Below are positions 38,484 through 58,087 of a DNA stretch of 64,000 nucleotides, piece after piece. Every line of letters begins with the position of its first letter. Within the stretch, counting starts at the first letter, position 1. The stretch comes from Parcubacteria group bacterium Gr01-1014_3 (GTDB taxonomy: Bacteria > Patescibacteriota > Minisyncoccia > UBA6257 > WO2-44-18), in NCBI GenBank assembly GCA_007376445.1, contig VMGF01000002.1, positions 103,928-167,927 on the forward strand. Reading direction: 5' to 3'. A model generated the notes under the pieces. It was not told where the DNA came from, made no database searches, and saw only the letters and a list, made by a program, of their open reading frames with translations. Made by a program: the position numbers and the translations under genes.

Positions 38484-38532
38484 AAAAAAACCGTCCGCCA
38501 ACATTTTCAAAGTTGTGGCGGACGGTTTTTTT
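38484..38532. terminator. Bidirectional terminator
   Basis: AAAAAAACCGTCCGCC...GGCGGACGGTTTTTTT between convergent genes. Confidence 0.75.
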
Positions 38533-39056
38533 TAAAGCTGGGGTTCCTTAATCGAGTAGATTGCTCCAAAAGCCTTTTCTAATATTTCCGTCCCGTTTCC
38601 ATCATGCCCTAAAACAGACGCGTGAGAAAAATTTAATCTGGCCGTGCCCGGCCTTTGTGCTCTAAAAGATATTTGTAAAATATTCCCCACTCTCATATAT
38701 TCCGGGTTAGTGAGGGCCCCGGAAAATTTTAATATTCCTTCGGTATTTGAGAAAGTTGGAGGATTTATCCAAAGATCGATAATTGAATCCTCGTAAGAAA
38801 TGGAATCGATCTCCAACAACTCTTTCGGAAACTTAACTACCGCCTCCGCCGCGTTAAAATCCACCGCGGAGCTAATTGCCACAAACACCGAAAAATTATC
38901 GCCGGAGGTAATGGTGGCGGTTTGCGGAGATAAAGCAAGATACGCGCCTAGGTCATCGCTAGCTAAAAACGAAGTACTGGCTAGGACGGCGGCCAGGGCA
39001 ATAAAGGCGGCGGCGATTAGAAGATAAAGATTGTGTTGTTTTAGTTTATCTAGCAC
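38532..39056 (-). CDS. Cohesin-like domain exported protein
   Basis: N-terminal TM; LSP, NA.E...FP..L, W...P, F.A...G.A.L.F, DG.GT. Confidence 0.7.
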   Translation of the reverse strand: MLDKLKQHNLYLLIAAAFIALAAVLASTSFLASDDLGAYLALSPQTATITSGDNFSVFVAISSAVDFNAAEAVVKFPKELLEIDSISYEDSIIDLWINPPTFSNTEGILKFSGALTNPEYMRVGNILQISFRAQRPGTARLNFSHASVLGHDGNGTEILEKAFGAIYSIKEPQL

Positions 39057-39077
39057 CGCTTAAAACTAAAACAATCA

Positions 39078-39096
39078 CTCTAAGAAAGCTCTAAGA
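39078..39096 (-). promoter_or_regulatory. Tandem direct repeat CTCTAAGA, 11-bp period (putative OmpR-type box)
   Basis: CTCTAAGA at 39078-39085 and 39089-39096, just upstream of the cohesin gene. Confidence 0.45.
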
Positions 39097-39123
39097 TATG
39101 GTTAAAATCTTTCTCGATTAAAA

Positions 39124-40668
39124 TTAAAACTTTACTATAAACGCAGTCCCAAATCCGGGAGAACTTTCCACGGTGATCGTGCCGTTATGCCTTTCAGCGA
39201 TGGTTTTGCAGATCGCTAATCCCAAGCCGGTGCCATGAATATCATCCCCGTTTTTCGCGCGATAAAATCTGTCAAAAATGTGCGGCAGGTCTTCGGAACT
39301 GATGCCGATGCCCGTATCGCTGACGGAAAGCTCAATAGGCCCGCGATTTTTATTGAGGGCAATCACGATCTTCTTTTCACCGCCATTATGCATGTATTTT
39401 ACCGAATTGCTTAGAAGATTCGTGACCAGCTCTTCCAGTCGGTTCTTGTCTCCTGTCACAAAAATATCCGGCTGGATATTGACGACCACATTTATGTGCT
39501 TCGCCTCCGCTAGTGTGCTGAAATATTCGGAAGTATCGGATAAAAGACGGCTCAAATTAACTTTTTCCCAGATAAAATTCGCCTGCGCTGTTTCCAATTT
39601 GGACAAATTCAGGAAATCATAAATGAACTTTGAAATATCATCTACCGATTTATCCAAAGCGCTCAAACTAGGCAATTTAACGTGATGCCTTAGCGACTCC
39701 AGTTCGCTTTTCAGGATCGTTAATGGGGTTTGTAGGCCGTGTGAAATATCCACCATGATCTGCTTTTCTTTTTCCCGTAATTCTTTGAGGTGGCTCGTTT
39801 TTTCTTCAACTCTTTTCTTTGAGTAAATTTCAATCAGAAAAACGGATATAATGCCGACCACGACCGACAAACCGGCGGAGATCATGACCGATAAGTGTTC
39901 TGGGATGATCAGGCCGATGTGAAGGGCTGATAATAAATAGAGCGACACTATTACTCCTAAAAGCGTCGCGTAGATCAGGCTTTTTTGTATAACTACGCGA
40001 ATGTCCATTAACTGATGACGGACCAGGGCATAGGCGGTGAAAGTCACAAAAACGATCGAGCCGAGAATGCCCATAAAATTAAGGTCAAAAACTCCAAGGA
40101 ATGGCAGGACAGCGCTAAAGACGAATCCGGTTATGCCAAAGGTAGCGGCGCCGAAAAATAAATACTTCATCTTCAATCTGGCCAGATCGGATAGTTTTCT
40201 GTAGTTCCGGAAAAATAAAATAATACTGAAGATCACGTAGAAACCGAAGAAAAACGCGTAAAGCGGGAACCAGGGAGTATTGATCGGAGCCACCGCGCCG
40301 TTAGCAGACACTTCGATGCCGCTGACAAAAATCCCGAACGGTATCGCGACACAGATCGGTATAAATGGAATCAGGGTCAACCAGAAAGACTTTTTTATTT
40401 GGGAAGAGTTCGGAAATGTTTTAGCCAATAAAACCAACCCGAAAAGTAAGGTCGTCCCGGCCATCAGAATAACCCGGTCAAAAATAATACTCTTAGTTAT
40501 AAAGACCAATACCAGGCTGCCGATCCAAACCGCTATGCCGCAGGCAAAGCAGAAAAATGACCAATTTACGATACTACGAGGGTTTTTGAAAAGCACGAAA
40601 ACTCCGATCAAAAAATTGACAATAGCCGTTCCCAGGAAAACCACCTCCTGGAGGGGTGAAAAAGTCAT
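39124..40668 (-). CDS. Sensor histidine kinase with N-terminal multi-TM (HisKA-7TM-like) domain
   Basis: 8-9 TM, SHGLQTPL H-box, NLLSN.VKY, DTGIG, GTGLGL. Confidence 0.9.
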   Translation of the reverse strand: MTFSPLQEVVFLGTAIVNFLIGVFVLFKNPRSIVNWSFFCFACGIAVWIGSLVLVFITKSIIFDRVILMAGTTLLFGLVLLAKTFPNSSQIKKSFWLTLIPFIPICVAIPFGIFVSGIEVSANGAVAPINTPWFPLYAFFFGFYVIFSIILFFRNYRKLSDLARLKMKYLFFGAATFGITGFVFSAVLPFLGVFDLNFMGILGSIVFVTFTAYALVRHQLMDIRVVIQKSLIYATLLGVIVSLYLLSALHIGLIIPEHLSVMISAGLSVVVGIISVFLIEIYSKKRVEEKTSHLKELREKEKQIMVDISHGLQTPLTILKSELESLRHHVKLPSLSALDKSVDDISKFIYDFLNLSKLETAQANFIWEKVNLSRLLSDTSEYFSTLAEAKHINVVVNIQPDIFVTGDKNRLEELVTNLLSNSVKYMHNGGEKKIVIALNKNRGPIELSVSDTGIGISSEDLPHIFDRFYRAKNGDDIHGTGLGLAICKTIAERHNGTITVESSPGFGTAFIVKF

Positions 40669-40703
40669 GCAGGCAGTCTAAATAAAGAGCCCTAGTATTG
40701 CAA

Positions 40704-41294
40704 CTAGGGCCCAAAAACTATAAAACCGGCCTTAACGGAGCGCCTCACGTTCGGCTCCATGGCCTCAACCATCTGACTCAAGTCCATCATATAGAGTTTA
40801 GGGGCTGGTAAGTCCAAATAGTAGCCTAAACCGTCCTTACTAATCCGATCCATCATCAGCCTGGCGTCCAATATTACCCGAGCATCGATACCCAGCTGAT
40901 CTAGCTTGGCCTTGATGTGATCTTTAGCCTCGGAAATCGTGTGAGTCTTGCCTTGAGTCAGGCCGTGCTTGGCCGCGACATAGATTAAGGCATCCGCGAT
41001 ACCCCGCATAGTGACCATCCAGCGTCCATATTGAATGTTTTTTTCTCTGTGGAATGGCCACGGAGTTTTGGCTTTATCGAATTCATAAATGATCTCGAGA
41101 GGCAAAGGTTTATTAACCTCGCCTATATCAAGACCGGTAGTACCGACAATTTCTGAGCCATTTGTGGCCACAAAAAGCACATCCGGAGGCGGAGGTGGTT
41201 GGCACTTATAATGATTGAAGGCTACTTTATTAATAAACTCCAGCGCTTTTTGATAATCACTGCCCTGGCCTACCAATCGAATGTTTATGGCCAC
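40704..41294 (-). CDS. GNAT-fold acyltransferase-like protein (thermostable-hemolysin/FeeM-like)
   Basis: A.EFI...F..Y, IVGT.G, LPLE..Y, QYGRW, LG, GYY...P pattern; GTG start overlaps the thiF stop (TAGTG). Confidence 0.55.
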   Translation of the reverse strand: MAINIRLVGQGSDYQKALEFINKVAFNHYKCQPPPPPDVLFVATNGSEIVGTTGLDIGEVNKPLPLEIIYEFDKAKTPWPFHREKNIQYGRWMVTMRGIADALIYVAAKHGLTQGKTHTISEAKDHIKAKLDQLGIDARVILDARLMMDRISKDGLGYYLDLPAPKLYMMDLSQMVEAMEPNVRRSVKAGFIVFGP

Positions 41295-42253
41295 TAACCC
41301 CTCACGATCTCTGCCTTCATTTTGGCAGCATCAAAGTAAAGATAGCCAGGCATCTTCGGCGTCTCAATCGCGGTCCGCTTGATTGCGGATGACGCGAGCA
41401 GATGCAATAAGACCCGGTCCGCGAGAAAACCAGTGGCCATTGGCGGATTGGTGGCAATAATCGAAGCCTTTCCCTCGTTAAATAGACGCTCTTTCAGTCG
41501 AATCACATTTTGGTAATCCGACTCTTCCGCGCAATATTCCGGTATGGCCGGCACCAACCCATTCAGCACGCTGTTCATCACTTCATGAATCTCGTCTTTA
41601 CTGGCTTTACGCGATTGAATTTTTTCCTGCAGCAATTTCGCTTTTTGATATGAAAGTCCCAGACAATCCTCCATCGTCTGGCTATCATGGGTAAACAGGA
41701 AAAGCCGCGTTCCAAAGCCGACCGTGTTGCAGTTAAAAACCGGCCTCTTAAACTTTCGCGCCTGCTGATGCAAAAGGATTCGGGCGCCAACCGCCCAAAA
41801 TTCTATTTCATCGCACACCACATCACATCCGGAAATAAACTGATCGACGGTTTCCTCCGAGATCCCCTGCGGATAAACTTCCAGAGTGAAATCATCGCTG
41901 ATCTCCCGGAGCATCCGGGCGGTTTCAAAAGCTTTGGATTTGCCAACCGTGAAGCGAGTTGCCGCGAATTGCCGATTGATATTGGAAATATCAAAAACTT
42001 CGCAATCGGCGATTCGGATTTCTCCGACTCCCAGGCGCAAAAATTTTTCCGCCAGCTGGCCGCCCATACCTCCGCATCCGGCAATGCCGATCACGGTTTT
42101 TCTAAGGACTTCCTGTTCGGTTTTGGTGATCCAGCCGATATTCCGGTCTACTCTTTCCCAGTAATATTTTTCATCGGCATTCCGGGGACCGATCCTATAG
42201 ATAGTGTCGAGTTTGAGCTTCTTAGGTAAGACTACGCGCTTCTGTACCATCAC
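41294..42253 (-). CDS. ThiF/MoeB-family adenylyltransferase
   Basis: RNIGWIT..EQ, GCGGMG, D...FD.SN.NRQ, K; no Zn-binding CxxC pairs; AAGGAGG SD. Confidence 0.9.
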   Translation of the reverse strand: MMVQKRVVLPKKLKLDTIYRIGPRNADEKYYWERVDRNIGWITKTEQEVLRKTVIGIAGCGGMGGQLAEKFLRLGVGEIRIADCEVFDISNINRQFAATRFTVGKSKAFETARMLREISDDFTLEVYPQGISEETVDQFISGCDVVCDEIEFWAVGARILLHQQARKFKRPVFNCNTVGFGTRLFLFTHDSQTMEDCLGLSYQKAKLLQEKIQSRKASKDEIHEVMNSVLNGLVPAIPEYCAEESDYQNVIRLKERLFNEGKASIIATNPPMATGFLADRVLLHLLASSAIKRTAIETPKMPGYLYFDAAKMKAEIVRG

Positions 42254-42299
42254 AAAAAACCTCCTTGTTAAGGTACCTCTCTAATTTTCGTTTTAAATT

Positions 42300-42328
42300 G
42301 CTATAAAAAAGCTCTAAAAAAACTCAAA
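42300..42328 (-). promoter_or_regulatory. Three degenerate GCTCTAA repeats, 11-bp period (putative OmpR-type box)
   Basis: GCTATAA 42300, GCTCTAA 42311, ACTCAAA 42322, upstream of thiF. Confidence 0.4.
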
Positions 42329-42333
42329 TCTTT

Positions 42334-43008
42334 CTAAAGTTGTTCGGAAAGTTTATAGCCACGGCCCGGAATGGTGTGGATAAGTCGTTTTTTAACGTTG
42401 GTATCGATTTTTCTCCGCAAACTCAAAATATGTGATTCAATAGTATTTGAAAATGGGTCCGCGCTCATATTCCAGACATGCTCCATGATCATACCTCTGG
42501 ATAAAACCGCGCCGGCGTTTTTTAAAAGATATTCTAATAGCGCGAATTCTTTCCGGGTCAAATAAACCTCTTTCGCGCCACGCTTTACCACCTGTTTTTT
42601 GTTGTCCAAAACCAGATCCGCAATCTGTAAAATATCCCCTTCTACTTTTGGCGGACGGCGCAATAATGCCCGAACTCTCGCCATGAGCTCTTCTAATGAA
42701 AATGGCTTACTGAGATAGTCATCGGCGCCGGAATTTAATAACTCAACTTTCGTAGAAACTTCACTTTTCACCGATAAGACGATGATCGGCACGCTCTTTC
42801 CCTCTTTCCGGACTTCTTGGCAGACCTGCAGACCGGTCTTTTTGGGCAAGATATTATCCAGAATAATTAAATCGTAATCGTTAGTCCGCGCCAAAAATGA
42901 CCCTCGCTCACCATCGGTAGCCACATCCACCGCGAAGGATTCCGCCTCTAAACCCGCCCGCAGAAACTGGGCGATCTGCTTTTCGTCTTCCACAATTAGG
43001 ATACGCAT
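42334..43008 (-). CDS. OmpR/PhoB-family DNA-binding response regulator
   Basis: ILIVEDE, GADDYLSKPF, LTRKEF, LRRKI, T.PGRGY. Confidence 0.94.
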   Translation of the reverse strand: MRILIVEDEKQIAQFLRAGLEAESFAVDVATDGERGSFLARTNDYDLIILDNILPKKTGLQVCQEVRKEGKSVPIIVLSVKSEVSTKVELLNSGADDYLSKPFSLEELMARVRALLRRPPKVEGDILQIADLVLDNKKQVVKRGAKEVYLTRKEFALLEYLLKNAGAVLSRGMIMEHVWNMSADPFSNTIESHILSLRRKIDTNVKKRLIHTIPGRGYKLSEQL

Positions 43009-43176
43009 AATTTGTTCATAAAGTATCAGGTGATTCAAGACCAGTCAAAGGCTAACATTTTATAGATAAATTATTTCTAAAGTTTAAAAATGGAGAATTT
43101 AAGAAAAATTTGCCAAATTTTAGCTAATTCGTCATAATCTAACAGGTTTTTTGATAGTGATTTAAGGAGTTGGCTG

Positions 43177-44046
43177 ATGGAAGTAATCGTAATTCCCCCG
43201 ACCTATTTTGACGTCGTGGAGTCTTACAATACCCGCATGCGGCCGGATCTGCCGTATGGCAAACCTGATCCACGCAAAACCTTTCAGCAGTGGGCGAAAA
43301 TGGTCGAGATTCTTACGTATGATCTTGGAGTTAAAGTAGAATTCATGAATCCGACTATCGATCTTCACGACATGGCCTTCGCCTGTGATCCGGGACTTTG
43401 GATAGACAATACGTTTATTGCCGCTAACTTCCAGCCGGAAGCTCGTCGGCTGGAGGTCGCGCCATTTTTTGAAGCCTTTTCCAGAACCACAACCTATCCC
43501 AGAGCCTTACCCGAAGAAGCATGTTTCGAAGGTGGCGACTGCGTTGTTGTAGGAAATACTCTCCTGTTGGGTTATGGCGAAAATCGCACCAACCGGCGCG
43601 GAGTCGAAGAGGTGAAAAAGATCCTGGAACCGCAGGCAATCAGGGTTGTCCCGATCCGCCGGGTCACGGAAGAGTTCTATCATCTGAACTCGGTGCTGAC
43701 AGTGTATCCCTCGGCCGGTCTCATCGCTTACTATGCCGAAGCCTTTGAGCCGGATATTCAAGAGATCCTTGAAAAAAATCTGCCGCGGATGAAGTCGGTA
43801 GCCCTTCCGAAGGACGCGGTCTACCGGAAACAGCCGGCGATCGGCGATGAGTATCTCTATAGCTACTGCCTGAATTCGATCGAAAATAACGGCAAAGTGC
43901 TAATGTCGTATTGTTCCAGTACGCATCGCAAGCTTCTCGAAAGTCACGGACTGCAACCGATCGTTCTCGACTGCTCGGAATTCGAGAAGTCCGGCGGCGC
44001 ATTTCGCTGTTTGACGATGATCCACAACATTACAAAAACCCCATAA
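43177..44046 (+). CDS. Amidinotransferase/dimethylargininase (pentein) family hydrolase
   Basis: F..D, R..E, FEGGD, YHL and GGAFRCLT with catalytic Cys. Confidence 0.85.
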   Translation: MEVIVIPPTYFDVVESYNTRMRPDLPYGKPDPRKTFQQWAKMVEILTYDLGVKVEFMNPTIDLHDMAFACDPGLWIDNTFIAANFQPEARRLEVAPFFEAFSRTTTYPRALPEEACFEGGDCVVVGNTLLLGYGENRTNRRGVEEVKKILEPQAIRVVPIRRVTEEFYHLNSVLTVYPSAGLIAYYAEAFEPDIQEILEKNLPRMKSVALPKDAVYRKQPAIGDEYLYSYCLNSIENNGKVLMSYCSSTHRKLLESHGLQPIVLDCSEFEKSGGAFRCLTMIHNITKTP

Positions 44047-45066: not shown

Positions 45067-46497
45067 TTAATTAATTCGTTTCATTTTCCGTTTCACGGCG
45101 CGGATGCTTTCTTTTAAGGTGTCGGTGATAATGCCGAGCTCGTTTTTACGTTTATTTTCGCTATCAGAGCCGATGATCAGCGGTGGCGTGATCCGGATCG
45201 CGGAAATTCCCGCGTCCAAGAAAAGCACGCCACGCTTCCGGGATTCCAGTACCACTTCATTTCGGAAATTTGTGGCCGGTTTTATGGTATTCGGATTCCA
45301 GAATTCAATCCCGTGCATCAGACCCATGCCGCGGACATTGTGAACTACGTCCTTATTTTCCTCTTCGATCATGCGCAAGGCTGGACCTAGTTCCCCATCG
45401 CCAACCTCCTGGGCTCGCTGAGGAAGATTCTTGGATAATGTCTGCGAAAGCACTTCCAGCGCTATAGCGGAACCGAGAGGAGAGCCGGCAAAAGTACTCG
45501 ACTGCTGTCCCTTATTGGTCCAGCCCATCTTGTGATCGTAAATTACGGCGCTGAACGGAAAACCATGCGCCAGAGATTTCGACAACACTACGACATCCGG
45601 CTCGATGTTGAAATGCTCAAAGGCAAAAAGCTTTCCGGTACGCCCAAGGCCGGTTTGAATTTCATCAACCACGACATAAACGCCGTGATTTTTGAAAAAC
45701 CTCACCAAGTCCTGAATCGCCTCTTTAGAAGGAACATTAATGCCGCCTTCGCCCTGGATTAGCTCCAGCACCACCGCGTTGACCGAATCAATATCGATCA
45801 TACCCTTACGACATGCCGTCTTCAGCTTCTCTAGGTATTCATTTCTCGTGAGGTCGGTGTACTGAACATCACCATCGTCGTCATAAACAAAATACCGATG
45901 CTTAGCTGGAAAGTGAATGTGGTAATTAGGAAAAGCGTTGGTCGGATAATTCTCCCGCTGAATGGGTTTCGAACAGGTCAACGACAAAGCGCCGAGTGTT
46001 CGTCCATGGAAAGCGCCATAGCACGCCACGAAATCTTTACGATGCTTTTGAGTACCAGTCCGTACTCGAGCGTTATAGCAGAGCTTAATGGCCGCTTCAA
46101 TCCCCTCGGAGCCGGAGTTAGCAAAAACAACTTCACGCTCCACTTTCAACGGTGTCAGTTCAGCCAGCACATAGGCAAGCTCCAGCGCGTAATCATTTTG
46201 CATATCATGGTGAGGATAGCCGAAGACATCCTTCTGCTTTCGCAGGACCTCTCGGATAACTTGCCTGATCCTTTCATTGCCATAGCCTAGATTTTTAGTA
46301 CTCACTCCTCCCGAGGCATCGATTAATGACCGACGCTGACCATTATCCAAAACCATAATGCGCGAACCTTTGCCGTCTAAATAGGTCAATTTCTTATCAA
46401 TGACGGTAGTGCAAGCGTAACTATCTTCTCTCTTTTCGCGCGGTATTTTTTCAACTCGGCTAAAAAGCTTAGCGGCGCGTTCCTTGTCTGTATTCAA
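45067..46497 (-). CDS. Class III (omega) aminotransferase
   Basis: NSGSE, FHGRT, ELIQGEGG, DEIQTGLGRTG, SKSL. Confidence 0.92.
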   Translation of the reverse strand: MNTDKERAAKLFSRVEKIPREKREDSYACTTVIDKKLTYLDGKGSRIMVLDNGQRRSLIDASGGVSTKNLGYGNERIRQVIREVLRKQKDVFGYPHHDMQNDYALELAYVLAELTPLKVEREVVFANSGSEGIEAAIKLCYNARVRTGTQKHRKDFVACYGAFHGRTLGALSLTCSKPIQRENYPTNAFPNYHIHFPAKHRYFVYDDDGDVQYTDLTRNEYLEKLKTACRKGMIDIDSVNAVVLELIQGEGGINVPSKEAIQDLVRFFKNHGVYVVVDEIQTGLGRTGKLFAFEHFNIEPDVVVLSKSLAHGFPFSAVIYDHKMGWTNKGQQSSTFAGSPLGSAIALEVLSQTLSKNLPQRAQEVGDGELGPALRMIEEENKDVVHNVRGMGLMHGIEFWNPNTIKPATNFRNEVVLESRKRGVLFLDAGISAIRITPPLIIGSDSENKRKNELGIITDTLKESIRAVKRKMKRIN

Positions 46498-46607
46498 GAG
46501 GGTGCTCCTTTCATGAGCTACATTTTTTTAAAGGACAACAACCGGGTATATCATAATAAGATTTTGGCAGGATGTCTAGCGAAAAATTTAAATAAAAAAA
46601 CCCACTC

Positions 46608-47900
46608 CTAGGAGTGGGTTTCAATCGCTTTCATCAGAATTTCAGTCGCTTTCTTGATCTCGTCATAGGTGATGATCAGCGGTGGCATCAGGCGGGTGCT
46701 TTGCTCGCCGGTACTCATTAGAAGCAGGCCGCGATTCATCGCTTCCTCGACCACCTTATCCCGCGTCTTCGCGTCGGTGAAGGTCATCCGGCTCATGAGT
46801 CCCAGTCCGCTAATGTCGCTGACCAGTTCCTGAGCCTTCAGACTGTTACTTCTCGCTTCCCAGAGACCACCGCGCAGTACCAAGCCCATCTCATGCGATG
46901 CCTGAGCCAAGTTCTCGCTTTCCACAATCTCCAGGGACTTCAGCCCCGCGGCGCACGCCTGCGGATAACCGCCGAAAGTGTTGCAGTGCTCGGCCCTCTT
47001 CCGGTAACCGAATCCACTCCGGAAAATAGTCGCGCCAATCGGTATCACACCACCGCTCAACGCTTTCGCCACCGTCATAATATCCGGCTCTACTTCGTAG
47101 AAATCAGAGGCCCACATATGGCCGGTCCGTCCCAGTCCGGTCTGAACCTCATCGATAATGACTGTGACTTGGTTTTCATGCAGGTACTGGATCAGCACCT
47201 GCATCATCCGCTTCTTCGCCACATTGATCCCGCCTTCGCCCTGGACCAGTTCCAGCAAGGCAAAGTTGATCTCTTTAATGAATGGCCCGATGGAGCTTTG
47301 GACATACCGGAGATACTGCCTGGAGGTTTGGATGCAATCCAGGAATTCTTTTTTCGCCATCGTCTCGGGATTTTCTGACGGGAAGATAAGGTAGAACGCC
47401 CGGTTAATCCCGCCATTCAATCCTTCCACATGAAGCGGCTTAGAGCTGGTCGCGGTCCGGCAAAAGCCCAATCGGCCATGAAAATCACCGGCAAAGGTAA
47501 CCATGCCGCGCCGTTCTGGCCGCGCCTTCAGGCAGGCCAGGATCGCCGCTTCGACTGCTTCGCCGCCGGAATTGGAAAAGAAAACTTGCTTATCATATTT
47601 TCCGGGCGTAATGGCTGAAAGCTTCTCCGCGAGCATGACCTGATACTTGTTCAGATACATATTCCCGCTCCAGCCGGCTTCGTCGTTATCGAGAACCTCT
47701 TTCACAGCATTCAAAACTGCCGGGTGATTGTATCCGATATTGGATACTCCCGGACCCGAGGCAAAGTCCAAATAAGGCTTATCATTCAGCCAGATCGTGG
47801 AACCCTTAGCCTTCGTAAAGATCAGCGCCGGCTTCCAAGCAGAAATTGCCACATTCCGAACGGCCTTAATCCCTAACTTCGCGTAATCCGATGCTTCCAT
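46608..47900 (-). CDS. Class III (omega) aminotransferase
   Basis: NSGGE, FHGR, ELVQGEGG, DEVQTGLGRTG, AKALSGG. Confidence 0.92.
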   Translation of the reverse strand: MEASDYAKLGIKAVRNVAISAWKPALIFTKAKGSTIWLNDKPYLDFASGPGVSNIGYNHPAVLNAVKEVLDNDEAGWSGNMYLNKYQVMLAEKLSAITPGKYDKQVFFSNSGGEAVEAAILACLKARPERRGMVTFAGDFHGRLGFCRTATSSKPLHVEGLNGGINRAFYLIFPSENPETMAKKEFLDCIQTSRQYLRYVQSSIGPFIKEINFALLELVQGEGGINVAKKRMMQVLIQYLHENQVTVIIDEVQTGLGRTGHMWASDFYEVEPDIMTVAKALSGGVIPIGATIFRSGFGYRKRAEHCNTFGGYPQACAAGLKSLEIVESENLAQASHEMGLVLRGGLWEARSNSLKAQELVSDISGLGLMSRMTFTDAKTRDKVVEEAMNRGLLLMSTGEQSTRLMPPLIITYDEIKKATEILMKAIETHS

Positions 47901-47986
47901 ATCACCTCCTTGTCACGCCAAGGGCGTGGCTTTCAAAGTTCCGCCCAAGAGTGTATCATTCCTGGCAGATATTTGAAAGGGACAAT

Positions 47987-49081
47987 ATGTCTAAACGTTT
48001 TGTAGTACTTGGCGGCGCCGGAACAATCGGACGAGTAGTGGTGCGCGATCTCTCCGAATCCCGGCCCGGCGATCATGTTATCATTGCAGATTACAACCAA
48101 GAGGCGGCGCAATTCGTGGCGGATACCATTAAGAATCCGGATATAGAAGTCCGTAAAGCGGATGCCCGTCAGCCGGAACTTTTAGCCGGTCTGCTCCGTG
48201 GCTCTGATGTAGTGATCAACTGCCTTCAGCACGACTACAATCTCATGGTGATGGCCGCGGCCCTGGAAGCGGGAACGAATTACGTGGACCTAGGCGGTTT
48301 GTTTACCTGGACCCGCAAGCAATTACGGCTTGATGAAAAATTTAGAAGCGCGGGATTGACGGCCGTGATCGGTGTGGGTTGTTCGCCCGGCATTACCAAT
48401 GTCCTTGCCGCTTACGCGGTAAAGCAGCTGACGAAAGTGAATTCCATAAAAATCCGGATTGGATCAAAAAATTTTAACCAGCCGGATAAAAAACTAAGCT
48501 TTCCATATTCGGCGCAAACGATCATTGAAGAGCTCACCCTGAAACCCTGGGTGTTCCAAGACGGACGGTTTCGCCAAGTATTGCCACGGACCGGCTGGGA
48601 ACAAACCCAATTCGACAAACCAGTGGGACCGGCCTGGACTGTCCGTACGCGACACAGCGAAATTGCCACCCTGCCGGTTAGTTTCAAAAAGAATGGCTTA
48701 CGATTCTGCGATTTCAAGGTCGGTCTTGACCGGCCATTCGTAAAAGAAGTAATGAAACGCTTGCGGAATGGCTGGACAATGCCGGAATTTCAAAAACTGG
48801 TTGCCACGCCTCCAGAACCCAACGACTATGAAATTGTAAGAGTGATGGCCGATGATATGACTATTGATTGCCATTCCCGCTCGCGTCCAGATTGGCGCGC
48901 CAGCGCCGGTGACATCAACACGGCTTGCCCCATCTCCATTGCCGCGCAGATGATCGCGGAGGGCGAGATTGAGCAGCCAGGCGTTTCACCGCCGGAGATT
49001 GCCATTCACCACGAATGCTTCGCCGCTGGTATATTTATCCTCAAACTCCAACTGTGCGGCATGAAAATCGTAATAAATTAA
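47987..49081 (+). CDS. Saccharopine dehydrogenase / lysine 6-dehydrogenase-like oxidoreductase
   Basis: GGAGTIG, NYVDLGG, G.SPGITN, HSE..TLP, GV.PPE. Confidence 0.85.
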   Translation: MSKRFVVLGGAGTIGRVVVRDLSESRPGDHVIIADYNQEAAQFVADTIKNPDIEVRKADARQPELLAGLLRGSDVVINCLQHDYNLMVMAAALEAGTNYVDLGGLFTWTRKQLRLDEKFRSAGLTAVIGVGCSPGITNVLAAYAVKQLTKVNSIKIRIGSKNFNQPDKKLSFPYSAQTIIEELTLKPWVFQDGRFRQVLPRTGWEQTQFDKPVGPAWTVRTRHSEIATLPVSFKKNGLRFCDFKVGLDRPFVKEVMKRLRNGWTMPEFQKLVATPPEPNDYEIVRVMADDMTIDCHSRSRPDWRASAGDINTACPISIAAQMIAEGEIEQPGVSPPEIAIHHECFAAGIFILKLQLCGMKIVIN

Positions 49082-49154
49082 AAACTCAAAGCCCGATTGC
49101 TTCAATCGGGCTTTTTTGTTAATATAACGGCGGTTCATTTATAAGGAGACGCGT

Positions 49155-50525
49155 ATGATGTTGCGATCGATTAATCCATCGAATTATAAGGTTGTGGGTT
49201 CGGTTAAGGTCTCGACTCCCAAAGAAATTAGCGACAAAGTTCGCCAGGCTCGTCTTTACCAAAAATATTGGTCGGAAATGGGAGCGGCGATGCGAGTTCA
49301 TATGGTGCGTAAAGCGATGGCCGAATTTGAAAAGCGGAAGGACGAAGTGATCAAGCTGGAATCGATGGAGATGGGCAAACCCATTACCGCGGCAGCCAGC
49401 GACTTCAATGACGCGATGGCTTTCGCCAACTGGTACTTGGACAACGCGGAAAAGTGCCTCGCCGCAGAAACGACTTTCGAGGACGAAAAGGAAATTCACC
49501 GGGTTTACCGTGAACCGCTCGGAGTGGCCGCGGTGATTATTCCTTGGAATTACCCGTTCCTGATGTTCGTCTGGACGGTCATTCCCAATCTGCTGGCCGG
49601 TAACTGCGTGGTTCTCAAGCACTCGGAAGAGTGCCCGCTAATAGGAAAGCTCATTGAAGAAGTGATGCATAAGTACGTTCACGTGAGCGCCTTTTCGGAA
49701 GTTTACGGCGGCGGCGAGGTCGGGATGCTGCTAGTTCGGAACGATATTGGTCTCATTTCTTTTACCGGCAGTACTGCAACCGGGAAAAAGCTTTACGAAA
49801 CCGCCGGCCGGAAGTTCATCCGCGCGGTTATGGAAATGGGCGGCTCGGCTCCCGGAATTGTTTTTGAAGATGCCAATATCGATGAGGCAGTCAAAAGCAT
49901 CTGCACTTATCGTTTGACCAATGCCGGTCAGTACTGCGATGGCCTGAAGCGGCTGATGGTTCATCAGGACCGATTTGAAGAGGTGGTCAGTAAGCTCTCC
50001 AATGCCTTCGCGACCCTGTGGGTTGGTCCGGCCGATCTTGAAAGCACCGAGCTGGGTCCTCTCGTCGCGAAACGACAGCTTGATCTCTTGGCAGCGCAAG
50101 TCGCTGATGCTAAGAGGTTGGAAGCTCGCGTAATCACTGGCGGTAAGTCATTGGAATCTGAGCTTGGGGGCGCGTTTTTCCAGCCCACGCTTTTGACCGG
50201 TGTTACTCCGGCAATGAGAGTCTGGAGAGAAGAGGTCTTTGGTCCAGTTCTGCCGGTGGTAAGGTTTAGAACCGAGGACGAGGCGATCTCAATCGCTAAC
50301 GACACAGTCTACGGACTCGGCGGATATGTTTACACCGCGGACATGAACCGGGCGGAGCGAGTGGCCCGCGCGCTCAAGACCGGCATGGTCAGCATCAACG
50401 GCACGAACTACACGACTCCGTTCAACCCCTTTGGCGGCTGGAAGAACTCCGGCATGGGCCGCGAGCATGGCAAGTACGGCTTCCACGAACTGACCCAAAC
50501 CAAGGTAGTCGCGAGAAATAAGTAA
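49155..50525 (+). CDS. NAD(P)-dependent aldehyde dehydrogenase
   Basis: PWNYP, FTGS, EMGG, GQYC, EEVFGP, PFGG.K.SG.GRE. Confidence 0.95.
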   Translation: MMLRSINPSNYKVVGSVKVSTPKEISDKVRQARLYQKYWSEMGAAMRVHMVRKAMAEFEKRKDEVIKLESMEMGKPITAAASDFNDAMAFANWYLDNAEKCLAAETTFEDEKEIHRVYREPLGVAAVIIPWNYPFLMFVWTVIPNLLAGNCVVLKHSEECPLIGKLIEEVMHKYVHVSAFSEVYGGGEVGMLLVRNDIGLISFTGSTATGKKLYETAGRKFIRAVMEMGGSAPGIVFEDANIDEAVKSICTYRLTNAGQYCDGLKRLMVHQDRFEEVVSKLSNAFATLWVGPADLESTELGPLVAKRQLDLLAAQVADAKRLEARVITGGKSLESELGGAFFQPTLLTGVTPAMRVWREEVFGPVLPVVRFRTEDEAISIANDTVYGLGGYVYTADMNRAERVARALKTGMVSINGTNYTTPFNPFGGWKNSGMGREHGKYGFHELTQTKVVARNK

Positions 50526-52987: not shown

Positions 52988-53716
52988 TTAAAAAATGGAG
53001 GGGTAGCCGAGGTAGTACTTGAGGGTGTGGATCCAGTCTTCGTCTTGGCTGCCTTCGGCTTGTTTACTGCCCAGCATCCATTCCAGGTAGCCGCGGTCGG
53101 TTTGGGCCACGTCCGCGATCTTTTTGTCTTTGTGTTTTCCGAAGTTAAATACTCTGAATAATGATGGCCGGCCGGAAATATCAATCATCTTGGCGATGGC
53201 TTCGGGTTCGGAGAGGCCGGTATCCATCATTTTTTTGAGCAGACGGTTAAAAAGCGCGTGGAGGACTTTCACGTCCCCTTCCGCGTCGTGGGCGTTGGCG
53301 TCTTCCACATCCAGTTCCAAAAAATACCGTAAAAAAGATAAATTGTATTCCGGGATCTGATTCTCCGGGTCTAGTTCCCGGGCCACCCGGAAAGTGCAGA
53401 TCCGCTTCGGGATATTCATTCCCTCGGCTTCCAGGATCGCGCAGTCGAATTTCGCATTATGCGCCACCAGGATTCCCCCATCGGTCAGCTTGGCCTGCAA
53501 GTCTTTCATCGTCGCGCTGTCTTTGAATGGCTCCTTATCCGCCAGCATCTTGTTGGTGATATTGGTAATACTCATGGCCTTTATCGACACCGGAATTGGC
53601 GGCTTAAAATAACCTACTTTAACCCCATCGGAAGTTTTGTAGCAAATCTGACAGAGCCTGTCCTTGGCCACATCATTGCCAGTCGTTTCGGTATCTAAAA
53701 AAATAAGTTGGGGCAT
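52988..53716 (-). CDS. DEDDh 3'-5' exonuclease (ExoX-like) with C-terminal FGKHK domain
   Basis: DTETTG, AHNAKFD, AHDAEGD, FGKHK..YL.W. Confidence 0.88.
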   Translation of the reverse strand: MPQLIFLDTETTGNDVAKDRLCQICYKTSDGVKVGYFKPPIPVSIKAMSITNITNKMLADKEPFKDSATMKDLQAKLTDGGILVAHNAKFDCAILEAEGMNIPKRICTFRVARELDPENQIPEYNLSFLRYFLELDVEDANAHDAEGDVKVLHALFNRLLKKMMDTGLSEPEAIAKMIDISGRPSLFRVFNFGKHKDKKIADVAQTDRGYLEWMLGSKQAEGSQDEDWIHTLKYYLGYPSIF

Positions 53717-54519
53717 GCGTTAATTAACTCATTCTACTATTTTCTCTATTTTTGCGAAACGCCAAGAGCGGAAATAATCTTATTCCCCATCTCTTCCGAC
53801 CAGTTCGTTATCGGCGAAAGTTCAAAAATGTGGTTTGTAAGTTTGCTAGCCTCGGTTATAAAAATTCCAGTTTCGCCGGTAATTTTCCCGATTTTTCCAC
53901 CCGCCAAAACCAACATTGCCATCACCCGAACATCTACCCCTTTAGTCTTAAAGAATTTAACCAAAAAATCTTTTTGTCGCGCAGTTTGCCAAACGGGCCT
54001 AGGAAGTTCAAAAAAGTTATACCATCCTCTCTTTTTATGCATGTGCCCTGCTTCAAAATCGAAAACACCAGAATAATTTTTAACCTCAAGAATAATTACG
54101 CCCTTGGGACCGAGTAAAAGCCCATCAATATCACCGATGCGCGTATTGGGGATTATATAATTCGGCACATAGATATAGCTGTCGTCCAAAGTTTCCTTTA
54201 ACATGTTAAGGATTTTTTCTTCGCCTTCCTTACCGGATTGAAATCCAGAAATTTTATCGAACAATGGATCTCCGTATTTTCGGCTAATTAAAATTATGAT
54301 TAAGCCGATAGTAGTAACTACCCACAAATATTTTGATTGACGTAAGGTTGGAATCACCAAGGTCAATGCAATCGTTACCATCACGAAGAGTATCACAAGC
54401 AAAACCGCTGTACCCCAAGGTGCATACTTGCGAAGATTTTTCGAGCTATAAGATTCTTGAAATTGGATAATTTTCATTTTTTAGTTGTTTCGGTATCTAA
54501 AAAAATAAGTTGGGGCATG
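53681..54519 (-). repeat. 37-bp direct repeat of the exonuclease 5' end (53681-53717 and 54483-54519)
   Basis: AGT[C/T]GTTTCGGTATCTAAAAAAATAAGTTGGGGCATG, one mismatch, brackets the NERD gene. Confidence 0.9.
53746..54477 (-). CDS. NERD-domain nuclease with two N-terminal TM helices
   Basis: G..GE, DID.LLLGPKG...LEVKN, P..Q. Confidence 0.85.
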   Translation of the reverse strand: MKIIQFQESYSSKNLRKYAPWGTAVLLVILFVMVTIALTLVIPTLRQSKYLWVVTTIGLIIILISRKYGDPLFDKISGFQSGKEGEEKILNMLKETLDDSYIYVPNYIIPNTRIGDIDGLLLGPKGVIILEVKNYSGVFDFEAGHMHKKRGWYNFFELPRPVWQTARQKDFLVKFFKTKGVDVRVMAMLVLAGGKIGKITGETGIFITEASKLTNHIFELSPITNWSEEMGNKIISALGVSQK

Positions 54520-54521
54520 GT

Positions 54522-55070
54522 TTATTTTGGGTTTGGTTGTTGCTTCTCTGTAAGTTTAATATATTCAACAAGCTTTGCGCCATCAATAAGCTCTATACCA
54601 ACCCTGTTGGCAAAAATTCTAGCCGTATGAATAAATCCATAAGTGAAATAACTGGTGGTGACGAAAATTCCTTTGGCGTCGGGATGATCAGCCTTGAGTG
54701 CCCCGAAGAACTCCCTCACCTGCTGTACGCGCACAGGGTGTTTAAGTCCGTATTTTTTGACCTGAATATAATAAATTTGACTATCCTTCTCTGCCTTCAC
54801 ATCAAATCCACCATCGGCCTGATGAACTCCGCCAATAACCTGAACATTCTCATATCCCATTTTTTTAAAAAGCATACCAATATAATCTTCAAATTCTTCT
54901 GGGTGCAATTTATGTATAAGGTCACCGAGGGTCTTTTGGCTGGCCAGCCACTTCTTATATCGCCTGTAGCGAAAATAGCCAACGATCAATCCAACTGCAA
55001 TGAACGGCACCAAGACATAAACAAAGGGTTTAATTGCGGCCAGCAAGACGGCCTGAGGAAGTTCGATCAT
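54522..55070 (-). CDS. Mrr-like restriction endonuclease with N-terminal TM
   Basis: EFE, DGGFD, QVK, V.EF.G, TTS.FT, LIDG. Confidence 0.87.
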   Translation of the reverse strand: MIELPQAVLLAAIKPFVYVLVPFIAVGLIVGYFRYRRYKKWLASQKTLGDLIHKLHPEEFEDYIGMLFKKMGYENVQVIGGVHQADGGFDVKAEKDSQIYYIQVKKYGLKHPVRVQQVREFFGALKADHPDAKGIFVTTSYFTYGFIHTARIFANRVGIELIDGAKLVEYIKLTEKQQPNPK

Positions 55071-55091
55071 ATGTATATCTTACTATAAAAT

Positions 55092-55119
55092 TTGCGCCCT
55101 CGGCAGGGATCGAACCCGC
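55092..55119 (-). pseudogene. tRNA 3'-end fragment (att-like)
   Basis: GCGGG-TTCGATC-CCTGC T arm plus CGAGGGC G acceptor strand; no D or anticodon arm upstream. Confidence 0.6.
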
Positions 55120-55350
55120 AAAATCGGGATAGCCAAACTTAAGCTACTGCCAAGAATTTTAAAACCGCCATTGGGCCCAATGGCGGTTTTAGGACGGAAT
55201 CAGTCGATGTATCACGAACAATCTTTTCTAAGACCCCTCTAAAGCAATCGCGTCAGATTTGTCAGAAAATTAAGATCGTCTGAGTAAGGAAATATTCTAA
55301 TTCTTGAGGTGAGTTGCTCGATTGGTACCTAGCTTTCATCCGACCCATAA

Positions 55351-55659
55351 TCACTTACCAAGTTTGTTGTATTTCGGTTTATATCTCGAAATTTCCGAAG
55401 CCTCAAAATCTTCAGCTTCTTGAGCGTTATCGCAAAGATGATAGCCGAAATGCGTTACGCCTGGCCAGTAATCACCTCGAAGATGGTCAAGCAGCCTACC
55501 TCGGATGCCGTCTTCGCTAACTGCCCTTCCGATGTAAAGAGGTATTAGGCCGCCATCCGTTGTTATCAAGCCGCAATAATAAACACCGATATGGTATGAA
55601 TTCAAATTACGTACGGTATCATCATTGTAGCTATAATGCCCACTATAATCGTTCACCAT
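55351..55659 (-). CDS. GIY-YIG nuclease-like protein
   Basis: GVY..YIG, R...H, E...I...P.YN. Confidence 0.78.
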   Translation of the reverse strand: MVNDYSGHYSYNDDTVRNLNSYHIGVYYCGLITTDGGLIPLYIGRAVSEDGIRGRLLDHLRGDYWPGVTHFGYHLCDNAQEAEDFEASEISRYKPKYNKLGK

Positions 55660-55865
55660 TATTGTTATTTCATCTCTTCTTATTATTCTCCGGCTCGACG
55701 AACCTTCGCGGCGCATTAAGAGAAAATGCTCGGTGAACCAGCTGTGGTCACTCTATAATTTTCTAAAATAACGTGGGCTATGTCAAATAGTATTGTGAAT
55801 ATGATGTGTATGATCTGGGGATAATTTTTCCTTGACGGTTTGCCTACGCTTGGTAAATTTACTAT

Positions 55866-56498
55866 ATGCATAACCTACAAATCAAATTATTAAAAATCCT
55901 TGGGAAGATAGATTTTTCCAAAGAAAGCCTGCGGAGTATCGCCAAAATGGTGGGCGAAAAATATCCACAAAAGATAAAGCACCATATTACCCAGTTAGAG
56001 AAAAAGTATCTAATCTCCGTAGACTGGCAGAATAAGCGGATCACAAAGACCGATCCGAAAAAAATGAATAACTCTCCCCTACTCTCGATCCCGATCGTAG
56101 GTATGGCCAACTGCGGCCCAGCCCTGGTCTTTTCCGAGCAGAATATCGAAGGCTTCGTAAAAATTTCCAAAGTGATCCTCGGTCTCAAAGCGATTGGCGA
56201 CTTCTTCGCTATCCGCGCTTCCGGTAATTCGATGAATCGCGCGAAGGTGGCCGGCAAAAGCATTGAAGACGGCGATCTAGTCATAGTTGATCCTCGGCTC
56301 AAAGAACCCCGCAATGGCGACTATGTTCTTTCTATTATCGACAATGTCGGCAACATCAAAAAATTCTTCCGTGACGCCAAAAATAAGCTAGTCATGCTGC
56401 TCTCCGAATCCACCGAAGACTATCCTCCAATCTATATATCCCCTCGTGAAGACTACTTCGTAAGCGGAAAGGTCATCTATGTAATAAAAAAGAGCTAG
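55866..56498 (+). CDS. LexA/S24-family repressor
   Basis: N-terminal wHTH, ANCG cleavage site, GNSM Ser and IKK Lys. Confidence 0.85.
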   Translation: MHNLQIKLLKILGKIDFSKESLRSIAKMVGEKYPQKIKHHITQLEKKYLISVDWQNKRITKTDPKKMNNSPLLSIPIVGMANCGPALVFSEQNIEGFVKISKVILGLKAIGDFFAIRASGNSMNRAKVAGKSIEDGDLVIVDPRLKEPRNGDYVLSIIDNVGNIKKFFRDAKNKLVMLLSESTEDYPPIYISPREDYFVSGKVIYVIKKS

Positions 56499-56581
56499 TT
56501 TTCGTTCAACCGATAACTATTTTGAAAAAAATGATCCAGCTTAATTTATTTAGCAGTAGGTCATTATTGTATAATGAGTAC

Positions 56582-57415
56582 ATGGAGCTGGATCAATATT
56601 TCACTAAGTCTGATGTAGCTAACCGGTGTCTTGAGCTTCTTTATGACAAGCTCCCAGGAATTCGAAATAAGTCCTTTATAGAGCCGTCAGCTGGCAATGG
56701 GTCTTTTTATTCAATTTTGCCAAAATCACGAAGAATTGGCTTAGATATTGCTCCCCAGTCGCCTGATATTAAAAGGGCAGATTTTTTGAGCTGGGAACCT
56801 AAAAGAAGCTCTCAGGATAAATATGTGATAGTCGGGAACCCTCCATTTGGACACCGCTCCAAGCTAGCTATAGATTTTTTTAATCATTCAGCAGATATCG
56901 CAAACACGATTGCTTTTATCGTACCTCGTCAATTCGAAAAATATTCTGTTCACTCAAAATTAAACAAAGACTTTAGACTTATCCACAGCCAAGAATTGGC
57001 CGAAAATTCATTCTACACTCCAAGTGGCAAGGATTTTGCCGTACGATGCGTTTTCCAAGTTTGGACTCGCAATGAAACAGAGCATGAAAACATGCGCATA
57101 CTTGAAGCGCCTCCAATCGTCCACCCCGACTTTGAGATGTACCAGTACAACAACACCCCAGATGCGCTAAAGTTTTTTGATAAAGACTGGGACTTTGCCG
57201 TTCCTAGGCAGGGCTATGAAGATTATACAAGGCGCGAAAAGCATAAAAATCGCTGCGAACTTAATAAGCAGTGGATAATGTTTAAGGTAAAAACGGAACA
57301 GGCTCGAGATAGACTGTTCAATTTTGACTTCTTTTCGCTTGCCAAGAAGAACACGATGGTTTATGGTTTCGGCAAAGCCGACGTCGTAATGGAATACAGC
57401 AAGCGTTATGATTAA
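56582..57415 (+). CDS. Amino (N6A/N4C) DNA methyltransferase
   Basis: DQYFT, EPSAGNG and GNPPFG motifs. Confidence 0.87.
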   Translation: MELDQYFTKSDVANRCLELLYDKLPGIRNKSFIEPSAGNGSFYSILPKSRRIGLDIAPQSPDIKRADFLSWEPKRSSQDKYVIVGNPPFGHRSKLAIDFFNHSADIANTIAFIVPRQFEKYSVHSKLNKDFRLIHSQELAENSFYTPSGKDFAVRCVFQVWTRNETEHENMRILEAPPIVHPDFEMYQYNNTPDALKFFDKDWDFAVPRQGYEDYTRREKHKNRCELNKQWIMFKVKTEQARDRLFNFDFFSLAKKNTMVYGFGKADVVMEYSKRYD

Positions 57416-58082
57416 CTCTTTATTTGAATCTATTCGAGATGACAAACAACTCTATCTAAATGCCCGCGAAGGAAGTGAATTTGAAGATAGGGTTGTTTAC
57501 TATTTAAAAAGCACCCTTGGCCTAACCCGCATCCTAAGACGGGACGTTGTGGCAAAAGACTGGGCGGCAATCAGTAGCCAGCTGGCTAATAAATTTGGCA
57601 CAGAATACCTTAACTTGCCCAATAAAAAGCTTAGAAAAACATTCATCTACCAACCACGCGGAAAACAAGAGTTTCCAGACATTATTGTTTTTAGTGATAA
57701 AAAAGTCATACCTATTGAGATAAAGTTCTCAGCTAATAGCCAGACGAAACCCATGTGGAATAGTAATGTTCCTAGGGCTAATGCTTTTTATATTTTTGGA
57801 TCATATGGGTTACAGGACATAACTTTCTTTTGTGGTGATAGCATCATTAGTCCAAAACACAGGGAAAGGCTGTATGGATTTTTTGATGATATCAAGAAGC
57901 TAGAGGATGAGATCAGAACTAAAATGCCTGAGCTGGATACAACGGACCGAGGATTTACTCCTTATATTAGAGCGGCATTCGATCAAAAAAAGCACAAGGA
58001 TACGGTAGTAACAAACTTCTTCACTCATCCGAAGCGGATTGAGGCAGAGAATTTAGCAATCGAAAAGCTGAAAGCCCTATAG
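57408..58082 (+). CDS. Putative type II restriction endonuclease
   Basis: FE..., FPD...IEIK PD-(D/E)xK motif, P.WNS; overlaps the MTase. Confidence 0.72.
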   Translation: MINSLFESIRDDKQLYLNAREGSEFEDRVVYYLKSTLGLTRILRRDVVAKDWAAISSQLANKFGTEYLNLPNKKLRKTFIYQPRGKQEFPDIIVFSDKKVIPIEIKFSANSQTKPMWNSNVPRANAFYIFGSYGLQDITFFCGDSIISPKHRERLYGFFDDIKKLEDEIRTKMPELDTTDRGFTPYIRAAFDQKKHKDTVVTNFFTHPKRIEAENLAIEKLKAL

Positions 58083-58087
58083 GGAGC

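Follow-up and report, generated by a model that had tools for sequence, protein, structure and literature searches.

The LuxM/LuxN (AinS/AinR) systems of Vibrionaceae carry out quorum sensing with acyl-homoserine lactones (AHLs) through a hybrid kinase with a receiver domain and a phosphorelay, and LuxN switches off when its ligand binds. The system considered here is a cassette of four genes (an OmpR-family regulator, a ThiF-family enzyme, an acyltransferase, and a membrane histidine kinase) of the Parcubacteria group bacterium Gr01-1014_3, found in the window, i.e., the whole stretch of 64,000 nucleotides that was analysed (GenBank assembly GCA_007376445.1, contig VMGF01000002.1, positions 103,928 to 167,927 of the forward strand). 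The cassette is conserved and is a candidate autoinduction circuit; we give a probability of about 0.6 to the full reading, in which it makes and senses its own signal. As in LuxM/LuxN, the gene of a GNAT-fold synthase, here a predicted one, stands beside the gene of a multi-pass membrane kinase, and some homologous sensors match LuxN weakly but in register. Unlike LuxN, the kinase ends after HATPase_c without a receiver domain, and its sensor has no LuxN match; the cassette also differs by its OmpR regulator and additional ThiF.

The N-acyl-cyclolysine (ACL) system of Bacteroidota uses a cyclic N-acyl amino acid as density signal (PMC13080023, PMC13419125). Our account of it draws on these two papers and on PDB 9EGB/9EGC, the primary report being Linares-Otoya et al. 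(Nature 2025, PMID 40836091). As in ACL, two adjacent enzymes, one of ThiF fold (AclA is its top VIA match, tied with thiamine ThiF), stand beside a regulator. In contrast, the ACL receptor is a LuxR-family repressor, whereas the cassette has a membrane kinase and an OmpR regulator, and belongs to another phylum. An earlier note on this DNA, made from the sequence, had cited the oxazolone pathways as precedent, but ACL is closer. The OxzAB, TyzACB, and TrzAS pathways do share an N-acyltransferase-type gene beside a ThiF gene, whose product is a small-molecule cyclase there and a predicted one here, and two of the three best NCBIfam matches of our ThiF are the models PRK14851 and Rv1355c. They differ in that this genome lacks a nitroreductase-family desaturase and that the acyltransferase is of T_hemolysin-like sequence type. 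Oxazolones are described as stress-induced and without known receptor (10.1101/2020.06.11.147165). A ThiF domain alone can yield a cyclised saturated product, and the role of oxazolones is called unresolved, with their likeness to signals noted (PMC12856293).

Two further sets of loci are relevant. The accessory loci of PEP-CTERM/exosortase systems contain the same kinds of genes (TIGR03694-type acyltransferase, PRK08223-type ThiF, PrsK-type kinase), and ThiF and PrsK both stand in a Rubrivivax PEP-CTERM table (PMC3684757, in part); unlike them, the cassette is compact, with four genes including an OmpR regulator, and the window proteins miss the TIGR03694 and PrsK cut-offs. In genomes of the candidate phyla radiation (CPR), Bernard et al. 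(2020) found 18 LuxI and 51 CqsA homologues beside sensor kinases and proposed complete systems (PMC7567580). In the portions available of that work, ThiF is absent from the main text and nine supplements, and 7TM (seven-transmembrane) from the supplements; the ThiF cassette and its regulatory anatomy are not covered there. The literature searched gave no description of the cassette (the ACL primary paper's own survey may cover loci outside Bacteroidota) and no ligand for PrsK, and the portions available of papers naming the HisKA_7TM sensor domain give no ligand for it; the comparison also took in PMC5847659, PMC10805038, and 10.64898/2026.07.27.740950. In conclusion, the cassette is akin to ACL in chemistry and to LuxM/LuxN in sensing, fails a defining feature of each, and is filed under neither.

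Organisation and distribution of the cassette

The source genome (808 kb, four contigs, 93.7% complete) includes the window as part of contig C3; its relatives have 0.4-1.3 Mb, and the nearest named ThiF loci are almost all from Patescibacteria. The five co-oriented genes listed in the earlier note are all present as open reading frames (ORFs) on the minus strand. The regulator (42334-43008; REC and winged helix, by Pfam Response_reg and Trans_reg_C and by NCBIfam) starts at an ATG set by homology to relatives, the ORF list running on to a TTG at 43038. Two receiver domains occur in the genome, both stand-alone, and this regulator is the only one of the two with a DNA-binding domain; the sensor-kinase genes that could be placed also number two. 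The ThiF gene (41294-42253; Pfam ThiF E 2e-31) codes for an adenylating enzyme predicted to be an N-acyl amino acid cyclase. Its stop TAG overlaps by one base the GTG start of the acyltransferase gene (40704-41294), which fits the translational coupling read earlier. The kinase gene follows (39124-40668; HisKA, HATPase_c, and HisKA_7TM in Pfam, the last at E 6e-4, under cut-off). The fifth gene (38532-39056) codes for a cohesin-domain protein (Pfam Cohesin E 1.1e-5) with an N-terminal hydrophobic anchor. It had been counted as part of the circuit, but a cohesin match near ThiF is found in just two distinct homologous loci (L023, L096), and the gene would be at most a local target, outside the conserved cassette.

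Searches anchored on ThiF gave 15 genome and 80 metagenome loci. Once the shorter ThiFs, a duplicate, and two remote hits had been set aside, a close group of 77 was left, or 61 after dereplication at 90%. A 7TM kinase lies within 3.5 kb downstream of ThiF in 37 of the 44 dereplicated close loci with enough flanking DNA. The acyltransferase adjoins ThiF in 45/49 close loci (37 T_hemolysin-like, 8 FeeM/LuxI-like), and the regulator lies within 3.5 kb upstream in 25/37, directly adjacent in 18. These labels come from profiles built on a subset of the same loci; independently, Pfam recognises HisKA_7TM in 8 of the initial 11 downstream kinases. ThiF and acyltransferase are fused in L050, L054/55, L056, P0024, P0101, and P0140.

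The association extends to a phylum sample of 401 genomes, with the sensor in 188 and ThiF in 72. At least 48 of the 78 ThiF matches are followed within 5 kb by a 7TM sensor in the same orientation, a lower bound as it refers to the 150 of 264 sensor matches listed, with a sensor profile that included five sensors of the same sample; roughly 0.2% is expected by chance, estimated from sensor density. Conversely, 49 of the 150 sensor matches listed lie after a ThiF. The four-gene linkage far exceeds chance. This survey of gene order, proposed in the earlier note, joins the ThiF family ranking and the acyltransferase fold given below in leaving the note's signal-circuit interpretation largely supported. 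The same sensor type also follows remoter ThiF groups, in 14/19 loci of a short-ThiF group (with N-acyl synthase or methyltransferase) and in 7/8 of an Rv1355c-like group (with nitroreductase). In L134-L141, where an Rv1355c-like ThiF accompanies an Acg-like nitroreductase, a 7TM kinase lies within 4.6 kb in all eight loci, often together with a PaaK-like ligase and a Leu/Phe/Val dehydrogenase.

Among 7TM sensors without ThiF match, 20 were picked by hand from the 101 others listed, and in 15 of these the sensor gene comes after that of a small-molecule enzyme (LuxI/FeeM-like, AMP-binding, amino-acid decarboxylase, aminotransferase, methyltransferase, UbiA). In these neighbourhoods (L148-L167, from 20 phylum genomes), 7TM kinases are preceded by arginine or ornithine decarboxylases, LuxI-like proteins, AMP-binding proteins with a class I/II aminotransferase (CqsA-like, L164), or UbiA, which suggests, from gene content, a general synthase-receptor layout. 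In L152 and L013, the 7TM sensor domain occurs in extra copies, stand-alone or in tandem, beside the cassette. The close ThiF form itself is found in one of 60 relatives (G001) and has no full-length match among 400 genomes of the phylum. Its patchy spread suggests transfer.

The two enzymes and their predicted substrates

Sulfur-carrier activating ThiF and MoeB proteins carry Zn-binding CxxC pairs. Unlike these, the window ThiF, a stand-alone protein with the motif RNIGWITKTEQ, has no CxxC, and its genome has no ThiS/MoaD-family match (PF02597; control positive in 11/14 genomes); the earlier note had drawn the same picture from the RNIGWIT..EQ motif and the missing sulfur-carrier gene. Its first NCBIfam ranks are PRK08223 (139 bits), PRK14851 (102), and the Rv1355c family (77), all under cut-off. 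Families of these types outrank thiamine ThiF, MoeB, and TcdA, in keeping with the separation from TcdA and MoeB that the note's reading implied. The ATP-site motifs are invariant. The structural model (pLDDT 90) has AclA as best VIA match (Z 25.2, root-mean-square deviation [rmsd] 2.2, 236 aligned), and the sequence profile matches AclA with 61 bits over positions 29-196, including the N-terminal R-x-x-RN motif, at about 20% identity. A quick ThiF tree was mostly unresolved, and a search among phages gave MoeB-like fragments only. Full-length relatives (32-37%) occur on plasmids of cultured bacteria, and in all five regions read, out of 86 records, they adjoin formyl-, carbamoyl-, or acetyltransferase genes. 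These plasmids (L168-L172: AP029230.1, NZ_CP045730.1, CP003748.1, NZ_CP073099.1, and CP152067.1) carry small biosynthetic cassettes, unannotated and more amenable to experiment, with a carbamoyltransferase, a formyltransferase and major facilitator superfamily (MFS) exporter under an ArsR-type regulator, or a GNAT and a methyltransferase.

The acyltransferase has a T_hemolysin match in Pfam (E 2.5e-4, under cut-off), no Autoind_synth (PF00765) match at E 0.1, and no TIGR03694 match. Its model (pLDDT 95) has LuxI synthases and FeeM as top Foldseek and VIA matches, with Z scores of 16.0 for RpaI (rmsd 2.8, 172 aligned), 15.8 for TofI, 15.2 for LasI, and 14.5 for FeeM; MesI scores 14.0, and generic GNATs 13.3 or less. 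The likeness to LuxI is therefore one of fold alone, and the GNAT-like partner of the earlier note, which had proposed a Foldseek check, turns out to have the LuxI/FeeM GNAT fold. Word-index searches found three and six homologues, and an exhaustive profile search was needed to delineate the family (650 members at 50% clustering). Its conserved residues are G51, E67, R91, W92, E122, G135, and Y159. Among homologous loci, some swapped partners match Autoind_synth (L016, L044), and the partners in L108 and L110 exceed the TIGR03694 cut-off.

Homologous cassettes have also drawn in genes for ketosynthases, glycosyltransferases, methyltransferases, phosphopantetheinyl transferases (PPTases), and amidinotransferase-family proteins. 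The inserts include a FabF-like ketosynthase, a glycosyltransferase, an amidinotransferase-methyltransferase fusion, and acyltransferase-methyltransferase fusions (L073:5613-6980; L044:4340-5617; L060:1002-2591; P0041, P0117). In an alphaproteobacterial record, a close ThiF homologue (55%) lies directly 5′ of a polyketide synthase-nonribosomal peptide synthetase gene (L021:7977-16925). Taken together, the fold and profile matches, the plasmid neighbours, and the tailoring genes suggest that an N-acylated amino acid is activated and closed into a ring.

The genome has no match to ketosynthase families (control positive in 14/14 genomes) and, on C2 (~331.8-333.4 kb), a stand-alone gene for a FadD-like long-chain acyl-CoA ligase (398 bits, under cut-off), which agrees with the earlier supposition that fatty-acid synthesis is lacking. 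Because no ketosynthase was found, acyl-CoA would come from this ligase acting on scavenged fatty acids. The genome has a single acyl carrier protein (ACP), rejected as acyl donor because its gene is part, like that of an adenylation domain, of a glycerophosphate-transferase cluster; this cluster (L146, G000:C2 109-121 kb), which also contains a PPTase, GNATs, and a formyltransferase, resembles Dlt-like surface-polymer modification. The acyltransferase is predicted to couple the acyl-CoA to an amino acid, and ThiF to adenylate and then ring-close the acylated amino acid.

The nature of the ring can be put forward tentatively. Divergent from the regulator lies an amidinotransferase-superfamily gene (43177-44046, plus strand; dimethylargininase/arginine dihydrolase-like by Pfam and NCBIfam), which is likely accessory. 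Its orthologues (56%) adjoin the cassette in L044 and G001, the latter being the only genome among 60 relatives in which both this gene and ThiF have a close copy, and a second amidinotransferase subfamily is found inside the operon in L060, L062, L067, L073, and L101. In this minority of loci, such neighbours hint at ornithine or citrulline. The nitroreductase family (PF00881), which the earlier note had reported absent, has no match in the genome (control positive in 14/14 genomes). Since no desaturase is present and genes that process arginine are repeatedly found next to the cassette, we favour a ring of the N-acyl-cyclolysine kind, a diamino-acid lactam with ornithine or lysine, though this is a guess we would sooner bet against than on; a saturated oxazolone ranks below it and is doubtful.

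Sensor, regulatory DNA and competing explanations

The kinase has about nine hydrophobic segments in its N-terminus (residues 5-284). The earlier note had spoken of seven; two further segments accompany the HisKA_7TM sensor. At 514 residues, the kinase is without the GAF region that most relatives carry; among 26 full kinases, 24 have 635-726 residues. Its ATP-binding boxes and the receiver Asp of the regulator are intact. A search of the Atlas with the sensor returned unnamed HisKA_7TM clusters only, and no solved structure matches the sensor profile. Among 18 homologous N-terminal parts freed of the kinase, 7 match the LuxN model NF041945 (best E 1.8e-9, residues 61-453 against 89-449 of the model) and 8 match PrsK, some over GAF only; the window sensor matches PrsK weakly (E 0.004, 15.7 bits against a cut-off of 300, residues 13-246 against 4-243).

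Sensor sequences follow the type of acyltransferase. Within the two acyltransferase types, the sensors of 25 complete loci have identities of 0.34 and 0.32, and between the types 0.25, whereas neither the kinase domain (0.39, 0.44, and 0.42) nor ThiF (0.51, 0.52, and 0.51) drops. Partial correlation with acyltransferase type is 0.71 for the sensor (p 0.0002), -0.19 for the kinase domain, and 0.11 for ThiF; the p value is overstated, since kin loci do not count as independent data and genes that lie side by side are readily transferred together. In a tree of 35 sensors, all eight FeeM-type loci and one locus without acyltransferase share one clade (support 0.973), whereas the kinase-domain tree mixes FeeM-type loci with others. 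The co-variation is confined to kinase residues ~1-210 (23 GAF-bearing loci), and is absent from the regulator, the cytoplasmic part of the kinase, and the ThiF end that touches the acyltransferase. This asymmetry is a stronger point than the p value. That the kinase senses some product of the two enzymes is quite probable, and the membrane kinase likely binds their molecule. Acyltransferase and sensor head would then form an exchangeable specificity block, to be compared with the variable specificity block of staphylococcal agr.

Tandem repeats spaced by 11 bp are typical of OmpR-family sites. In 20 spacers between regulator and ThiF genes (the window excluded, and four near-duplicate or mis-called spacers dropped), the identity of bases is highest at lags 11 and 22 (z 5.4 and 4.2). 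A motif of two half-sites scores 224 at spacing 11; other spacings reach 163-165, and 12 shuffles 137-157. The matrix trained on these spacers finds in the window a box of 11-bp period (YTTTAKC-N4 type; 42302-42339, minus strand) 5′ of ThiF (score 10.9, p 0.003 in 2000 shuffles), the predicted regulator site. Among held-out loci, 9/28 have a box at p<0.05; six loci with no adjacent regulator (L022, L053, L068, L070, L100, L114) have a variant 11-bp repeat of TTAAT-N6-TTAAT type upstream of ThiF. Another box, 5′ of the regulator (43065-43082, minus strand; score 12.3, p 0.005), would allow autoregulation in this genome only, p<0.05 being reached in 5/27 homologous regulator upstream regions. 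A weaker one 5′ of the cohesin gene (39079-39107, minus strand; score 7.4, p 0.054) is a possible regulator site. The ThiF box and this cohesin-side box have in common the 10-mer TTAGAGCTTT, a pattern picked after it had been noticed, whose two copies in the genome lie at 42317 and 39094. Genome-wide, 303 sites score above 9, too unspecific for a regulon.

The enzyme pair ends with a terminator-like hairpin (40687-40712, minus strand; 10 pairs, T tail). A hairpin with T tail lies 3′ of the acyltransferase in 25/31 loci, against 0.9 expected, although a few of these calls fall within the kinase start and may be spurious. Because a sigma-70 promoter and terminator scan of the whole region was at chance (8 vs 8.1 and 8 vs 6.3), the hairpin counts only via its conservation. 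Tandem box and hairpin indicate that the enzyme pair is likely a separately switched transcription unit. The regulator likely controls it through the box, and such a boxed and terminated unit would give an amplifying loop.

Several observations weigh against this circuit. The kinase is missing in 7/44 close loci, the acyltransferase in 4/49, and a nearby regulator in 12/37; 19 of 28 held-out loci have no significant box, and an arginine-processing gene is found in just 6/37 loci with enough upstream DNA. ThiF is under the cut-off of every NCBIfam family, the Z score of AclA is tied with that of thiamine ThiF (24.8) and near that of MoeB (24.0), and by sequence profile TcdA stands above AclA (65 vs 61 bits), but over 50-179 only. 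Position 88 of the acyltransferase, presumably the site of the catalytic base of FeeM, a Glu, is Gln in 71% of 149 relatives and Glu in 22%. An acidic residue after the phospho-His is needed for autokinase activity. In the H-box H-x-LQ[TS]P, x is acidic in 6/26 kinases (Glu in L022 and L053) and is G in the window (HGLQTP); as it is rarely acidic, the receptor may be weak, or mainly a phosphatase. The window's own sensor fails to match the LuxN model. Block recombination of the adjacent acyltransferase and sensor head could give part of the co-variation. Last, the sensor tracks the acyltransferase and hardly ThiF (r 0.21, p 0.07), and sensing of an uncyclised product fits this equally well.

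This last point is the core of a first alternative, in which the ligand of the kinase is the acyltransferase product itself, a linear N-acyl amino acid, and the role of ThiF is to convert, inactivate, or transfer this compound, for signal turnover or towards a second product. The 7TM kinases that follow acyltransferases without ThiF (L152, L157, L159) agree with it, as do ThiF-bearing producers of N-acyl tyrosine with no detectable oxazolone (PMC12479983, in the part available). It accords poorly with the status of ThiF, which is the best conserved enzyme, heads the boxed unit, and is fused with the acyltransferase in several loci, and with L042, L086, and L098, where ThiF and kinase are kept with no acyltransferase between them. 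We regard it as improbable.

It is similarly hard to credit that the two-component system reads an outside cue, such as host contact or membrane state, and, without sensing it, induces a metabolite that is aimed at the host or serves in defence. Neighbouring genes do recombine jointly, but here the co-varying block stops where the sensor head ends, inside the kinase gene, and leaves out the equally adjacent ThiF end. Box and terminator indicate regulation rather than sensing, and the plasmid relatives carry an MFS exporter with a one-component regulator; against this stand the LuxN-like character of homologous sensors and the 15/20 hand-picked ThiF-less 7TM kinases that follow other small-molecule enzyme genes. 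The stress induction of oxazolones and their lack of a known receptor (10.1101/2020.06.11.147165, in part) would also suit an outside cue.

A third explanation makes the partner an AHL synthase using S-adenosylmethionine, and ThiF its dedicated acid-activating enzyme, in a LuxM/LuxN-like AHL circuit. The CoA-dependent AHL synthases RpaI, BjaI, and MesI are top folds, yet FeeM is at most 1.5 Z from the top. Some swapped partners match Autoind_synth (L016, L044), and homologous sensors are LuxN-like, but the window acyltransferase has no such match at E 0.1 and lacks the N-terminal LuxI signature that is seen in the L016 partner. The CPR genomes do have 18 LuxI homologues beside kinases (PMC7567580), whereas the small-molecule ThiF enzymes characterised so far, according to the part available of PMC12596934, are cyclases. 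This explanation is quite unlikely. The last one, in which ThiF would activate a sulfur carrier, ubiquitin-like protein, peptide, or tRNA in the manner of an E1 enzyme and the GNAT would modify a protein, is highly implausible, for in spite of the ThiF/MoeB tie by fold and of TcdA coming first in the PDB sequence search, there are no CxxC and no ThiS/MoaD match, the TcdA model (NCBIfam PRK15116) gives 43 bits against a cut-off of 304, the coupled ORFs leave no space for a precursor gene, the spread is patchy (1/60 relatives), and the tailoring neighbours are ketosynthase, methyltransferase, glycosyltransferase, and PPTase.

Genomic surroundings and possible meaning for Patescibacteria

Other features of the window lie around the cassette. 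Between the converging DUF4382 and cohesin genes, a long inverted repeat with A and T tails (38484-38533) is likely a two-way terminator. Two class III aminotransferases, a saccharopine-dehydrogenase/carboxynorspermidine-synthase-like gene, and an aldehyde dehydrogenase (45067-50525) may compose a polyamine or ornithine pathway; they were rejected as cassette members, as they have no match beside any homologous locus. Isocitrate lyase adjoins malate synthase at 9911-12776 (minus strand), a glyoxylate shunt that is surprising in so reduced a genome and that may pair with the FadD-like ligase. An AT-richer block (52988-58885) contains exonuclease, NERD, Mrr, LexA-like peptidase, and GH19 protein genes, and the pattern TTAGA-N6-TTAGA is also found inside it, at 55242.

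Patescibacteria are mostly uncultured and host-dependent, and the cassette may bear on how they time attachment, growth, and release. As a compact, expressible test case of four genes, it joins a predicted synthase of a signal to a predicted receptor, regulator, and binding box. If the circuit is as proposed, it would add a new kind of signal chemistry, give the HisKA_7TM sensor domain a class of ligand, assign a function to a T_hemolysin-like GNAT family, and offer a possible handle on the cultivation of Patescibacteria. A broader picture, speculative as a whole, is that of a phylum-wide chemical language. In it, the 7TM kinases of LuxN/PrsK type (188/401 genomes) would be plug-in receptors for interchangeable synthase cassettes, and specificity types would arise when the acyltransferase is swapped together with the sensor head. 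The ThiF cassette would use fatty acids scavenged from the host to make a novel cyclic acyl-amino-acid autoinducer, and the cell might thereby read both its own numbers and its feeding on a host.

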